A stretch of 52,329 nt of DNA from the sequence record NC_048799.1; one strand, 5' to 3'. A program made the position numbers and the translations under genes. Within the stretch, counting starts at the first letter, position 1, and every line of letters begins with the position of its first letter. The notes beneath the pieces are model-generated. The model searched no databases, was not told where the DNA came from, and saw nothing but the letters and a program-made list of their open reading frames with translations. Shown piece after piece: positions 12,735-21,056 of the stretch. This DNA is from Escherichia phage Mangalitsa.

Positions 12735-12764
12735 GTCGTTTGTTAAATCAGAGCAGTTCTGAAA

Positions 12765-12784
12765 CATTAGTTGAATGTGAAAAG
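12765..12784 (+). promoter_or_regulatory. phage-RNAP-type promoter CATTAGTTGAATGTGAAAAG
   Basis: Motif family member upstream of the acidic protein gene. Confidence 0.55.
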
Positions 12785-12857: not shown

Positions 12858-13196
12858 ATGGCTAAGATTGTAACCGTAACTCAGTATGAAGCTAACGATG
12901 GTTCCCTGTTCCTGAGCGAAGCAGAATGTAACGCACACGATTTTAAACTGGAAAACGGTGCTAAAATCGACGCAGCTGTTGAAGCGTTCGCCAACACCAT
13001 GAAACTGGTTGACCGTTCTCGCTCCATGCAGAGCAACACTGTTGCATCCTTCCTGGCATTCTACCTGCCGTGGGTTGAAGCTGGTTGCCCGGAAGTTGAA
13101 CGTGTTGCGTTCGACACTCCGAAAGAAGTCAAAGTTGCCGAAGCAGAAGTAGTTGAAGCTGTTGAAGCTGCTGTGGAAGAAGCTCCGGTATTCTAA
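12858..13196 (+). CDS. small acidic protein with acidic tail ending in PVF; candidate DNA mimic or replisome-docking protein
   Basis: About 20 Asp/Glu against 9 Lys/Arg; tail VAEAEVVEAVEAAVEEAPVF; codon usage typical of highly expressed enterobacterial genes (CTG, CCG, CGT, GAA). Confidence 0.55.
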   Translation: MAKIVTVTQYEANDGSLFLSEAECNAHDFKLENGAKIDAAVEAFANTMKLVDRSRSMQSNTVASFLAFYLPWVEAGCPEVERVAFDTPKEVKVAEAEVVEAVEAAVEEAPVF

Positions 13197-14041
13197 GTTG
13201 CCAAGGGCAAACTTGAGAAGCTAAGCTAATTCGATCTGGCACGCACTGGAAGATTTCCGGTGCTGCCTTGAACCCATTCCGGCGTGAGTGGGCTTCAATG
13301 AGCATTCTTGTGATTAGAGTTGGGAGGTAGGCCGATGCCCAATCTCGTGGCCCAGACAAGAGTGTTCATTGAAGTTATTTCAATATGGATGTACAGTAGG
13401 ATGAGAAGCTTCTCCGATAAGAGGAGTGAAAGTAGCTGGAAGGACATGCCCACAGAACTGACCGAGACCATTACAGTAGTAGCGATTCACTACCGCGAAA
13501 CAGTATTGAAATTGGCAACGGTTCATGCGGAAGGGCATCAGTGAAATCTACGTTCAGTGCGCGTGGTGAAATGAAGGAGTAGTGTCCTGAGAATTAGCCC
13601 TGTCTGGTTAAATGCCAGAGTCCATATTAAAGTAACTGGAAACTATTCCTGTCAGGTACTCCTATAATGTCTGAAACGGAGTCAGGTCGCACCTGGTAGC
13701 CGAGGCTATTTACCTACAGATGGATACCTGACAGAAGTAGTTTTCTGAGTCTTACGACGGGCCTAAACTGCCTGGAGTTATTGCGACTGTTTTATTCATT
13801 TAAAATAAATGCAAATGATTCTGAAATGCGAGTTGCGGCTTAATTAAATTTGAGTCCTCTCCGTGGTCTTCCAATCCCATGTAACCAAATTTGGCGCATT
13901 GTGGCTTCGAGATGTGATTAATAAATCGGAGCAATAATTAATTTGTATTCTGCGATGCAGGGCAGGCTTAAGTCCCTCAGTGCGCGTAGGGATGTGATAG
14001 AGTACAAACTTAATTATTAACCTAACCTATAGAGAAACATT

Positions 14042-14296
14042 ATGGAAAGCATTGCCGTATTAATTGTTGGTGTTCTGTTGTTTGCTGCATACATGATTCC
14101 AACTCTCATTGCATTTAGTCGTGGTCATGCTTCCAAGTGGGGCATTTTCATTACAAATCTGTTACTAGGTTTAACAGGAATCTTTTGGGTTGCTGCATTA
14201 ATCTGGTCGCTGTCCAATAAAGGTCAGCAACAATCTCTTGTTGTAAATGTTGGCAGTAATAATGTCAGCAATGTATCACAAAAGGATTCGCTTTAA
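14042..14296 (+). CDS. superinfection-immunity-like small membrane protein
   Basis: Two predicted TM helices; MIPTLIAFSRGHASKWGIFITNLLLGLTGIFWVAALIWSL fits the A..R.H....I..N.LLG.T.I.W..A.IW pattern I recall for this family. Confidence 0.5.
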   Translation: MESIAVLIVGVLLFAAYMIPTLIAFSRGHASKWGIFITNLLLGLTGIFWVAALIWSLSNKGQQQSLVVNVGSNNVSNVSQKDSL

Positions 14297-14543
14297 GTGA
14301 ATTGCCCTGAGCATGGAAATAAACTGCTCTAACCGATGGTATCTACAAAGGTAGATTAAATCAGGTTGCCTGTTGGTACTTGGGTTCAACACCTGCTTGC
14401 ACTCGCAAAGTAGTGCCTTGTACCTGAGATGAAGTGAGTCGGGACCATCAATCCCACGTTATGTCAAAACACAGTAGGCGACTCACAGATTCTACAAGCC
14501 TCGCAGTTTGGGAAAACCTGCGTTACCAAAACCCACCTCATTC

Positions 14544-14639
14544 GGACGAGTAGCTCAGAAGGTCTGCTCCAGAGCTTAGTCAGGTAGAGCAATCTGTTCG
14601 ACAGATGTGTCGTTGGTTCGAATCCAACCTTGTCCACCA
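14544..14639 (+). tRNA. tRNA-like gene with an expanded D region; candidate anticodon UCG (Arg) if the anticodon loop is GTTCGAC
   Basis: 7-bp acceptor stem GGACGAG/CTTGTCC, canonical T-arm GTTGG-TTCGAAT-CCAAC, discriminator A and encoded CCA; D-arm-like GCTT-AGTCAGGTA-GAGC preceded by about 20 extra nt; 93 nt before CCA. Confidence 0.4.
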
Positions 14640-14669
14640 GCTTTAATAACCCGCAACACTGGAGTCCTT

Positions 14670-14810
14670 ATGGATTTTGATGCACTTGATAACTTAGACT
14701 TCGGTGCTGCCGAAGAAGCAATTGAAGAACTGAAGAAGAAACAGGACGAAGAAGCAATCGTTCCTGGTGCTGGCGACAACGACTGCTCAAGTGGTGCGTG
14801 CGCCATCTAA
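14670..14810 (+). CDS. hypothetical small acidic peptide (46 aa) with Cys-containing C-terminus
   Basis: GGAG RBS; MDFDALDNLDFGAAEE...GAGDNDCSSGACAI. Confidence 0.35.
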   Translation: MDFDALDNLDFGAAEEAIEELKKKQDEEAIVPGAGDNDCSSGACAI

Positions 14811-14818
14811 GGTGAATC

Positions 14819-15055
14819 ATGCAACAGCTTAAGTCAATCTTTCTTGGCGTCTTGACTGCATTGGGTATTCTCCTTGCAGTGTTCCTCAAAGGCAAAAGCT
14901 CAGGCAAAGCCGAGGAGCGCCAGGAAGCCAAAGAGAAGCAATTCGATTCCATTAAAGAATCTATCGAGATTAAAACGCATGTTCAGAAAGAAGTGTCTAG
15001 CAGTTCTGATAGCAATGTCGATAGTGAGTTGCTCTCAAAGTGGGTTCGTAAGTGA
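14819..15055 (+). CDS. small membrane-anchored protein, possible i-spanin-like
   Basis: N-terminal TM IFLGVLTALGILLAVFL followed by a charged helical region; AAGGTG RBS. Confidence 0.4.
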   Translation: MQQLKSIFLGVLTALGILLAVFLKGKSSGKAEERQEAKEKQFDSIKESIEIKTHVQKEVSSSSDSNVDSELLSKWVRK

Positions 15056-15188
15056 TTACTGCATGATTGCACAACCAATATATTTGGATGTTGCAGAAGT
15101 GAAAGTTTTGTCACGCGAAACCAAAACACAGATTTTAGTCCACAATGAAACGTGGGCACAAAAGTGTTCGAAACTTACCCGACAGTGA
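14979..15188 (+). CDS. possible o-spanin-like lipoprotein overlapping the preceding gene in the +1 frame
   Basis: MFRKKCLAVLIAMSIVSC: positive n-region, hydrophobic core and lipobox-like IVSC; starts inside 14819..15055 and extends past it; rare codons weaken the call. Confidence 0.3.
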   Translation: MFRKKCLAVLIAMSIVSCSQSGFVSDYCMIAQPIYLDVAEVKVLSRETKTQILVHNETWAQKCSKLTRQ

Positions 15189-16085
15189 GTGAACAAGACG
15201 GACGTCTATAACTTCCCACATAAAGTCGAGGGAGTGCGCGACTTTAAATAACGAGACTCTAGCCACTTGTGGTATGGCAGGTGTAATTCCTGCAAGTTGC
15301 TCTGGGCATAACAATTGAAATTGCTGCCTCGCATTGAACGCGAAAAAGTTCAGGTAGTCACTTCCTAGAACAGTGGCCGGGAACAGACCTAGACAAAAGT
15401 GCTTGAGAACGTTAGCTCTGTCTTGCCAGCATTAATGGCACGTTGGCCGCGTAAAGGCCACAGCGTCTGACCAACGTATCGGTCAACCAAATTCAACGGA
15501 TTCGTAGAGTTAATGAAACCTGCACGATGGGATAGGGATGAAGCATCCGAGGCCGACTGTGTAATTGTGAACGCGGAGTTCACCGAATCCACCAAATCAA
15601 TGGGCTAGTGCAAATGTCAGTCACTAGAAGATGTGTTGCAAAACGTCTTCCATGATGTGCAAAGTGTCAGTCACGTGCCCACCACTTTCCTAACAGTTAT
15701 GCCTCTGTTCAAAAGGCTCATGCGAGCGTCTGGCATACCGTAGCGATACGGCTTAGTTGCGCTGATTGTGTTGTGTCGAAAGAAAGTTCAGGCTTTCGTT
15801 TGAGTTCCTCCTCATCTCGAAGTTAGCTGGATTCAAAATCCAGACTATGTTCCTATTCACATGAAATATGCAAGTCGAGGGTTCTTAATATCTGACATAG
15901 GTATTAAGCGGGTTTATACTTTTCCCCGATGGTCCCCATAAACAAGGTTGATTCACTTGGGCGGTTCGAATCAAATTTAATAAGTGTCTTGGCCGCAGTG
16001 GAAACATCATTTAAGCCAATTTATTGTAATGTTCGTAATAGTCCACGTCAGGGCACTTACTTAAATTTTATCTAGAGAGAGAAAC

Positions 16086-20784: not shown

Positions 20785-21056
20785 TGAAAACTGTATACTC
20801 TATTTTCGATATGCAGGAGTTAGAGCATCATATGTTTGCTACTGATTCCGAAGTTCTCGCAAAAGACGCCGTAATGGCGTTTCTTGAAAAGATTAAGGGC
20901 AACGTATTCGCTTCGTCCGACCCACAGTCTCAAGCACTTAACGATGAGACATTTAAAAGCCTCCAATCTTTAATCTCGGCAACGACTTCAATTGAAGAGC
21001 TGTCCGAAGCATTAGTTGGATACGACTTCCGTCTTGCAACATTGCAAGTCGATTAA
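20784..21056 (+). CDS. hypothetical protein
   Basis: ATG overlaps DNAP stop. Confidence 0.5.
   Translation: MKTVYSIFDMQELEHHMFATDSEVLAKDAVMAFLEKIKGNVFASSDPQSQALNDETFKSLQSLISATTSIEELSEALVGYDFRLATLQVD

Follow-up and report, generated by a model that had tools for sequence, protein, structure and literature searches.

A tRNA-like element conserved in Escherichia phage Mangalitsa and its relatives that may be a non-decoding RNA excised by host tRNA-processing enzymes

RNAs that resemble transfer RNA (tRNA) in part and do not decode are known from several systems. Species 1 and 2 of phage T4 (rnaC and rnaD) are small stable RNAs which are co-transcribed and co-processed with tRNAs, have tRNA-like ends and are non-decoding. 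The t-elements of plant mitochondria are non-canonical tRNA-like structures that direct cleavage of mRNAs by RNase P and RNase Z (Hanic-Joyce 1990; Forner 2007; PMC1920247), and the YrlA RNA of M. smegmatis is cut by RNase P and receives CCA (PMC4201824). Here we describe a locus in Escherichia phage Mangalitsa (NC_048799.1), a phiEcoM-GJ1-like myovirus of the family Chaseviridae, subfamily Cleopatravirinae, genus Carltongylesvirus. The analysed stretch of 52,329 nucleotides (nt) is called the window below, and a tRNA-like element of 96 nt was read directly from it at positions 14544-14639 on the + strand. A preliminary description had left three options for this element: a functional atypical tRNA, a tRNA pseudogene or a tRNA-derived regulatory RNA. 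Our favoured reading, held with moderate confidence on the basis of sequence comparison, is a tRNA-derived, non-decoding tRNA-like RNA that would be excised by host tRNA-processing enzymes. The first interpretation as a whole was partly supported. Its third option is preferred, because the anticodon reading is weak and the pattern expected of a simply decaying pseudogene fits poorly.

The element is composed of the following parts.

14544-14550 (+): 5' strand of the acceptor stem, GGACGAG, pairing with 14629-14635 and invariant in 24 relatives.
14551-14552 (+): UA, tRNA positions 8-9 (U8-A9).
14553-14573 (+): extra segment GCTCAGAAGGTCTGCTCCAGA (as RNA, GCUCAGAAGG UCUGCUCCAGA), located between U8-A9 and the canonical D-arm.
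14551-14562 (+): U8-A9 with a first D-arm-like half, GCTC AGAAGG, containing the equivalents of A14, G15, G18 and G19; 0 of 12 sites variable.
14563-14573 (+): variable 3' part of the insert, TCTGCTCCAGA; pi=0.21, two very different haplotypes.
14574-14590 (+): canonical D-arm GCTT-AGTCAGGTA-GAGC (as RNA, GCUU-AGUCAGGUA-GAGC), which fits the D-arm positions of the Rfam tRNA model.
14591 (+): A, position 26, by sequence reading.
14592-14606 (+): anticodon-arm remnant ATCTG-TTCGA-CAGAT, a 5-base-pair (bp) stem with a 5-nt loop; stem invariant, loop in four haplotypes.
14607-14611 (+): variable loop GTGTC, short (type I), invariant among relatives.
14612-14628 (+): T-arm GTTGG-TTCGAAT-CCAAC, aligned to the Rfam model with high posterior probability; one variable site.
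14629-14635 (+): 3' strand of the acceptor stem, CTTGTCC; one variable site, pairing kept.
14636 and 14637-14639 (+): discriminator A and encoded CCA, present in Mangalitsa and variable in relatives.

The 7-bp acceptor, the canonical T-arm with its TTCGAAT loop, the discriminator and the CCA were all read in 14544-14639 as first described. The acceptor pairs GGACGAG with CTTGTCC, one G.U among the seven pairs, and was paired in 100% of haplotypes; the T-arm has the 5-bp stem and the TPsiC-type 7-nt loop of a canonical tRNA. The D region could not be placed as a single D-arm, since it holds either 20-21 extra nt after U8-A9 or else a D-loop of about 30 nt. The roughly 20 additional nucleotides reported earlier thus correspond to the insert at 14553-14573, and in-silico removal of about 21 nt almost anywhere in 14551-14580 made ARAGORN report a tRNA-Arg(tcg). 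The suggestion that the insert begins like a D-arm, as if partly duplicated, also found support: GCTCAG (14553) and GCTTAG (14574) are spaced 21 nt apart, as would fit a D region enlarged by partial duplication or by an insertion of 20-21 nt. Two D-stems are candidates, an outer one (GCUC 14553-56 with GAGC 14587-90) and an inner one (GCUU 14574-77 with the same GAGC). Each pairs in 100% of haplotypes, hence they are indistinguishable; only the outer stem is intact in phage SA91KD. The anticodon arm has a 5-bp stem and a 5-nt loop, 2 nt below the tRNA norm of 5 bp and 7 nt. The 7-nt loop GTTCGAC with anticodon UCG for Arg, as first proposed, is possible only with the closing G-C pair opened, which leaves a 4-bp stem. 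The UCG is present, but the loop is really of 5 nt, its would-be anticodon drifts among relatives and the assignment to Arg is weak.

The element was found in about 38 database records. The comparison set comprised 24 non-identical copies with flanks, reducing to 12 haplotypes of the element itself; divergence within the single genus that supplies all copies is limited, and a metagenome scan contributed only two more. The 5' strand of the acceptor, UA with GCUCAGAAGG, both strands of the hairpin stem and GUGUC were invariant in the relatives. A single variable site was seen in the T-arm (T-loop position 60) and a single one in the 3' strand of the acceptor, where G-C becomes G.U and the pair is retained. 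The 3' part of the insert occurs as two unrelated haplotypes, TCTGCTCCAGA and TTTGCATT-GT, and the hairpin loop as TTCGA, TTAGG, TAAGA or TCGAA on the invariant stem. As anticodons they would specify Arg (UCG), Leu (UAG or AAG) and Ser (CGA), among phages which are about 90-95% identical; in all loop variants the acceptor is the same and the body lacks both a type II arm and A20. Discriminator and tail were ACCC in most relatives, otherwise ACCA, GCCA or GCTC; the encoded CCA of the preliminary description is thus real in Mangalitsa and a few relatives and is not conserved among the rest. Variable sites made up 3 of 76 structural positions, against 12 of 20 non-structural positions (p=7e-8) and 25 of 41 flanking positions (10 nt upstream and 31 nt downstream; p=9e-12). 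The hairpin substitutions, at least seven, were confined to the five loop positions (p=4.6e-4). The comparison with relatives that had been suggested as a check therefore gave, over the 24 copies, a nearly invariant scaffold with a drifting loop and a partly drifting insert. Judged from these alignments, the pattern is unlike that of a decoding tRNA and unlike that of a neutral pseudogene. An antisense open reading frame (ORF), annotated in EcoM1 and FXie-2024a, was considered and rejected: its length varies from 47 to 84 amino acids (aa), its frame is shifted by a 1-nt indel that separates the insert variants, conservation tracks RNA stems and not codons, and all phage genes lie on the + strand.

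By descent the element is a type I tRNA, as far as shared sequence modules tell. Exact-pattern scans of viral contigs showed GTGTC with the same T-arm in ordinary phage genes for tRNA-Phe, tRNA-Met and tRNA-Asn, and an ordinary phage tRNA-Phe in contig L024 has the D-arm TAGCTCAGTCAGGTAGAGCA, nearly identical to 14574-14591 of the window. The acceptor with the start of the D-arm, GGACGAGTAGCTCAG (GGACGAG-TAGCTCAG), is common in phage tRNAs (Arg(TCT), 21/40; also Lys, Val, Phe and Met). The ancestor may plausibly have been Arg(UCG)-like, since TTCGA is what the canonical loop CUUCGAA would leave on losing its two outer bases. A metagenome scan with the block upstream of the element, seeking an insert-free ancestor, returned two loci only, both with the insert, and scans of viral contigs with the acceptor or the T-arm returned generic phage tRNAs only. 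In four unrelated phage contigs (L029, L033, L036 and L042) the same GTGTC and T-arm were seen with insertions of 40-70 nt after the D-arm or the anticodon region; these genes were without an ARAGORN call and may be intron-containing or insertion-bearing tRNAs.

Standard gene finders do not recognise the intact element. ARAGORN reported 0 tRNA genes and no transfer-messenger RNA (tmRNA) across the whole window, and the Rfam scan at curated thresholds gave no match at the locus to tRNA, tmRNA, intron or Y-RNA-type families. A permissive search of 361 nt with the Rfam tRNA model (RF00005) gave a local match of 27.9 bits (E=6.8e-4; cutoff 29), which spans model positions 9-63 only, from D-arm to T-arm, with two anticodon-loop positions missing. 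The ARAGORN check proposed at the outset was thus negative for the element as it stands and gave tRNA-Arg(tcg) once about 21 nt were deleted; restoring a 7-nt loop alone, with the insert kept, gave no tRNA call. A scan for a 7-bp acceptor adjoining a hairpin found one match in the gap that holds the element, against 0.13 in shuffled sequences. Together with the local Rfam match, this speaks for more than a chance resemblance.

The weight matrix with which promoters were sought was derived from nine sites that the phiEcoM-GJ1 annotation gives as phage promoters (consensus AACATTAGTTGGATGTGAA); real sites score 22-29 with it. The features relevant to transcription are as follows.

12762-12781 (+): nearest upstream promoter of the phage RNA polymerase, AAACATTAGTTGAATGTGAA, weight-matrix score 28.9.
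14042-14296 (+): gp30-like ORF, flanking the element upstream.
14496-14534 (+): conserved block with the hairpin CGCAG-N11-CTGCG, unique in the window and kept in all relatives.
14670-14810 (+): conserved 46-aa ORF, the first gene downstream, with GGAG at 14661-14664; followed by spanin/lysis genes and annotated as a coding sequence in many relatives.

The next strong phage promoter lies at 21007, with only a weak site (16785) between it and 12762, and a search of the + strand in 13000-15400 revealed no sigma-70-like promoter. According to these predicted motifs the element sits 1.8 kb into a long phage-polymerase unit, between genes, so any discrete RNA must come from cutting that transcript. 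Three candidate signals were rejected. The block at 14496-14534 scored 0.6 as a phage promoter, below the 22-29 of real sites; GCCTCGCA, considered as a repeated signal, occurred in two copies against 1.1 expected, which is not significant; and ATCTGTT, contained in the hairpin, as a T7 class II pause or termination signal occurred nine times against 10.4 expected, and its seventh base varies in relatives.

Blocks homologous to 14496-14534 also precede tRNA-like units in Erwinia phage Faunus, PP101 and 4HA13, which belong to other genera of Chaseviridae. A homologue of the Mangalitsa element itself was not found in Faunus, PP101 or PM1, where the slot holds different units; PM1 has a true tRNA-Cys in its second gap. 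After the conserved block, Faunus, PP101 and 4HA13 carry a different unit of 97-98 nt with an acceptor, a T-arm, a D-like arm and a non-decoding central arm, GUCUGCU-GG-ACUCCG-AAUUGUAG-CGGAGG-U-[long central arm]-AUGUCA-CCGGG-UUCAAGU-CCCGG-AGCAGAC-ACC. Its copies are located as follows.

1959-2055 in Faunus (sequence L110).
1553-1649 in 4HA13 (L114).
2639-2736 in PP101 (L111).

The central arm is wholly different in PP101, and a 7-nt anticodon loop was present in no copy. In 6.5 kb of Faunus the acceptor-plus-hairpin scan gave nine matches against 1.9 expected from shuffles, four of them with the loops TTCGAAT, TTCAAGT or TTCGATT. Faunus has at least six unannotated units (L110 1597-2346 and 3413-3591) with long irregular interiors and mostly NCCA tails; NCCA ends were found in most sister units. 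The unit at 1597-1680 is above the Rfam tRNA cutoff (31.1 bits) and has no ARAGORN call. The window contains a second unit of this kind.

15498-15594 (+): TLE-B, found by the acceptor-plus-hairpin scan, with GGATTCG, UA, a long central arm, GTGAAC-GCGGA-GTTCAC, CGAATCC and ACCA.

TLE-B has a perfect 7-bp acceptor and a fold z of -2.45, and was missed by ARAGORN and by Rfam. It is conserved in GJ1, Ecp_YSF, Pel53, metagenome locus L108 and Faunus (L110 3413-3492); in six phages the acceptor and the CCA are invariant and the hairpin loop varies. Modules next to TLE-B are exchanged between close relatives. Among these sister units, compensatory changes between genera were observed and support the helices.

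Unit 1, Faunus against Aeromonas phage phiA050: acceptor position 6, and T-stem positions 2 and 3.
Unit 2, Faunus against PP101: acceptor position 7.
Unit 4, Faunus against 4HA13: acceptor positions 4 and 6.
TLE-B (15498-15594), window against Faunus: base of the central arm, C-G to U-A.

The sister units are unannotated in these genomes, and no tRNA genes were reported in the 4HA13 paper. On our reading, Chaseviridae keep a set of non-decoding modules shaped like tRNAs in the non-coding gaps of one transcription unit, and of these the Mangalitsa element resembles a tRNA most closely; the locus itself is already annotated in some relatives, and the wider module set in this family is undescribed.

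Some further observations concern the same gaps. Unit 3 of Faunus combines a D-arm like that of tRNA-Ser with a long arm whose terminal loop is CUGAAAC. A third CCA-ended module of the window, at 15602-15684 (+), reads GGGCUAGUGCAAAUGUCAGUCAC...GUGCCC-ACCA and has an internal direct repeat, GUGCAAAnUGUCAGUCAC, on either side of a variable hairpin. Pectobacterium phage PP101 carries the same module (L111 2858-2955) in a different gap, and Ecp_YSF and L108 have another cassette in its place. About 85 nt from the T-arm of Faunus unit 1 downstream (L110 1659-1742), including a AACCGAAAGGTT hairpin, match tRNA regions of unrelated large phages at 77-89%, namely Erwinia KEY ('tRNA-OTHER'), Serratia ('tRNA-Phe'), Klebsiella, Yersinia jumbo phages and Pantoea; this stretch is perhaps an element that is widespread, conserved and associated with tRNA clusters.

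To judge from the variation, selection keeps the acceptor/T-arm stack, the elbow (U8, A14, G18, G19, G15-C48 and the T-loop), G1-C72 and the RCC(A) tail. These are the parts which, in bacterial tRNA maturation, are read by RNase P, by the 3' processing enzymes and by the CCA-adding enzyme. In the history that we propose, the element would have started as an ordinary type I phage tRNA and suffered two lesions: the D region would have gained 20-21 nt by insertion or partial duplication, and the anticodon hairpin would have lost 2 nt, with its loop now drifting freely. It would be transcribed within the long polycistronic RNA of the phage RNA polymerase, recognised by host RNase P on the 5' side and by the 3' tRNA-maturation enzymes, and cut out. 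Such excision would yield a small stable tRNA-shaped RNA and would at the same time split the transcript between the gp30-like gene and the 46-aa ORF with the lysis cassette. Excision by host enzymes seems the most economical mechanism for what was found. The sequence comparison shows how the element is built, its tRNA descent, the pattern of selection, its place in a transcription unit and the existence of sister units; expression, cleavage by RNase P and RNase Z and a benefit to the phage are inferred.

Several observations weigh against this reading. Double-sided covariation within the genus was not detected by RNAalifold or by pair counts, because there is too little diversity, and the helices of the element consequently rest on conservation and tRNA descent. 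The relatives are close, so that part of the conservation could stem from a recent common ancestor or from recombination of the cassette. The element is dispensable, as the Yersinia phages PYps3T, 4T and 16T carry a clean deletion (the loss is described in PMC8762354), and SA91KD is short of six nucleotides of the D-arm. CGA makes up 15% of the Arg codons of Mangalitsa (7.0 per 1000), so a UCG decoder would be useful. Tandem arrays of units, as in Faunus, exceed the needs of simple punctuation of a transcript, and together with the encoded CCA they hint that punctuation is perhaps not the whole story. As to the deletion itself, in PYps3T (L022, about 1000-1060) it apparently lies between short CCACC repeats with the flanks intact, which makes this phage a natural element-minus counterpart of PYps23T and PYps16N.

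A wider proposal, which we make only tentatively and at well below an even chance, is that Chaseviridae keep mosaic arrays of CCA-ended non-decoding tRNA-like RNAs in the large non-coding gaps of their middle transcription unit, for punctuation or as decoys. Each unit would then be an acceptor/T-arm minihelix around a freely replaceable interior, to be cut out by the tRNA-maturation enzymes of the host, and the Mangalitsa element would be the Carltongylesvirus occupant of a conserved slot. The arrays would serve a purpose beyond decoding, either RNase P-dependent punctuation of phage-polymerase transcripts or the diversion, as decoys, of host factors which bind tRNA ends or attack them.

Among the other explanations, a working atypical tRNA-Arg(UCG) would have to loop out the 21 nt, open the G-C pair to give the 7-nt loop G-U-UCG-A-C, be charged by arginyl-tRNA synthetase (ArgRS) and read CGA and CGG. 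It would agree with the tRNAscan-SE calls of tRNA-Arg in relatives (PMC6266442) and with the occurrence of unusual cloverleaves in bacteria and phages (PMC5389517). It would also serve the CGA codons counted above, and each of the four loop variants retains U33 and a purine at position 37. As discriminator the element has A or G, both of which E. coli ArgRS accepts. Nevertheless we consider such a decoder rather improbable, because the loop is 2 nt short and the anticodon changes in close relatives on a constant stem: A35 or G35 replaces C35 in 6 of 24 relatives with the rest of the molecule unchanged. C35 is the main identity element for ArgRS, and A20, the other main Arg determinant, was read in neither D-like loop; the sub-cutoff Rfam score, the missing ARAGORN call and the clean loss in PYps3T, 4T and 16T point the same way. 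ARAGORN offers another decoder in GJ1, DE15, Bp10, SKA49 and ST32, the five copies with insert variant B, namely a type II tRNA-Leu(cag) of 95-97 nt in which GCTYA-GTCAGGT-AGAGC serves as the anticodon arm and ATCTG-TTCGA-CAGAT as the long variable arm. A variable arm could well be a 5-bp stem whose 5-nt loop is free in sequence, and the total length suits a type II tRNA. This fold, however, takes the D-arm for an anticodon arm, closes that anticodon stem with an A/A mismatch, accepts a D-stem in which only 2 of 4 pairs form, and is called neither in the Mangalitsa window nor in most relatives. By descent, what it reads as the anticodon arm is a D-arm, and GTGTC with the T-arm is a type I variable region. 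We take the Leu fold as an artefact on sequence grounds, because the element is a type I tRNA by descent, and give a tRNA-Leu(CAG) very little credence. Still less is given to an intron-containing tRNA from which the 21 nt would be spliced to leave a normal tRNA, as in the GenBank note to phiEcoM-GJ1 ('may contain an intron'), in spite of the tRNA call after in-silico removal of 21 nt. In bacteria, the introns of tRNA genes sit in the anticodon loop and are self-splicing group I introns about 200 nt long or longer, and E. coli is not known to have a bulge-helix-bulge splicing endonuclease. The insert has 21 nt, lies in the D region and is without self-splicing capacity, the Rfam scan gave no intron family, and the anticodon arm would still be 2 nt short after removal.

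A dead tRNA gene that is simply decaying, with conservation due to the youth of the genus or to hitch-hiking and an inert RNA, is unlikely in our judgement, although it is the rival we take most seriously. The two disabling lesions (insertion and short loop), the variable tail and discriminator, the 6-nt deletion in SA91KD, the complete loss in PYps3T-type phages and the disagreement or silence of annotation pipelines are all as expected from decay. Under decay, however, stems should be struck as often as loops, yet 3 of 76 structural sites vary against 25 of 41 in the flanks (p=9e-12), the hairpin substitutions are all in the loop (p=4.6e-4), the lone change in the acceptor preserves the pair, and unrelated units at the same slot in other genera maintain their helices by compensatory changes. 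The element could alternatively be a tRNA-shaped decoy or sponge, a CCA-ended minihelix that, once processed, binds or absorbs host factors acting on tRNA ends or elbows, for instance tRNA-targeting defence toxins, or that competes for RNase P or the CCA-adding enzyme. Selective retention of the top half with a decoding part free to vary would suit this, as would the several units per genome, mostly with an encoded CCA, and the exchange of cassettes between close relatives, which arms-race loci would show. No defence or counter-defence protein was linked to the locus, however, and the Mangalitsa-type element encodes CCA in only about half of the relatives, so that we regard a decoy as improbable.

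The favoured reading of a non-decoding, excised RNA bears on the way in which this locus has been annotated. Since 2008 the single locus has been labelled as tRNA-Arg with an intron, as tRNA-Arg without one, as Arg or Leu, or as no tRNA. In phiEcoM-GJ1 it is a 95-nt 'tRNA-Arg, may contain an intron' according to the GenBank note, and in ST32 a 95-bp tRNA-Arg 'without an intron' (PMC6266442). In Ecp_YSF and Pel53 it is a 71-nt tRNAscan-SE tRNA-Arg which starts 22 nt downstream and thus is without the true 5' strand of the acceptor. The Yersinia phage group was described as having a 'tRNA for arginine or leucine' (PMC8762354), Mangalitsa as having '0 tRNAs' (PMC6753284), and a paper from 2026 still gives the locus as plain tRNA-Arg. 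The existing tRNA-Arg label is very probably wrong, and arguments on codon usage or host range drawn from it are unsafe, because the molecule very probably cannot decode. These compact lytic phages, with about 90% coding sequence, reserve gaps of 0.4-1 kb for conserved tRNA-shaped RNAs that standard tools miss. If the RNAs are indeed cut out by RNase P, they would offer a simple system for the study of how phage-polymerase transcripts are punctuated or of phage tRNA mimicry. Natural element-plus and element-minus phages exist in PYps23T and PYps3T.

Other features around the locus were recorded. The non-coding stretch 14297-14543 (+) is conserved across genera, with CCCTGAGCATGGAAATAAACTG at about 14305 and a hairpin GGGA-CCATCAA-TCCC at 14441-14455; both also occur in PP101, 4HA13 or Faunus, which suggests a further structured RNA. 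The non-coding gaps 13197-14041 (about 0.85 kb) and 15190-16085 (about 0.9 kb) are unusually long, given that about 90% of the genome is coding. Rfam matches of tmRNA type at 13736-13898 were weak and below threshold, and window positions 13300-13360 are homologous to Faunus L110 1488-1550. HNH homing-endonuclease genes lie in the gap upstream of the element in DE15 (L013), Pel53 (L003) and 4HA13 (L114) and not in Mangalitsa, so this gap is a hotspot for mobile insertions. The Pel53 record (PP952070.1, 'Staphylococcus phage Pel53', with a Staphylococcus hyicus label) is about 95% identical at the locus to E. coli Carltongylesvirus, and its host label looks doubtful.

Compared with known systems, the element shares descent and modules (GGACGAG, the D-arm TAGCTCAGTCAGGTAGAGCA, and GTGTC with the T-arm) with ordinary phage tRNAs such as tRNA-Arg, and is unlike them in its 21-nt D insert, its 5-nt anticodon loop, its changing 'anticodon' and its sub-cutoff Rfam score. 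T4 species 1 and 2, whose stability has been shown by experiment, are a parallel within phages to this putative RNA; to our knowledge there is no detectable sequence relationship between them. With the tRNA-like domain of tmRNA the element has in common an acceptor/T-arm minihelix with a CCA end around non-tRNA sequence. In contrast to tmRNA it has no tag reading frame and no pseudoknots and is of 96 nt, in line with the absence of an ARAGORN tmRNA call in the window. YrlA Y RNAs likewise have a tRNA-like module of D-arm, T-arm and acceptor in a non-decoding RNA (PMC4201824). In YrlA, however, the ends of the RNA form a Ro60-binding stem, the 'acceptor' is an internal stem-loop and the gene lies beside that of Ro60 (rsr), while in the phage element the RNA ends form the acceptor stem and no Y-RNA-type family of Rfam matches. 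The t-elements, which are thought to act as cleavage signals for RNase P and RNase Z and can accumulate as small RNAs, differ in that the phage element belongs to a bacterial virus, with the host's bacterial RNase P as the putative nuclease. Phage units, moreover, often encode CCA and form tandem mosaic arrays beyond what punctuation needs. Both t-elements and the phage element are tRNA-derived and non-decoding, with a good acceptor and T-arm (motif GGTTCRANYCC) and a non-canonical remainder, and both are located between genes in long transcripts of a phage-type single-subunit RNA polymerase, on the phage side as predicted from promoter motifs. If it is indeed excised by RNase P, the element would be a bacterial-virus counterpart of the mitochondrial t-elements.

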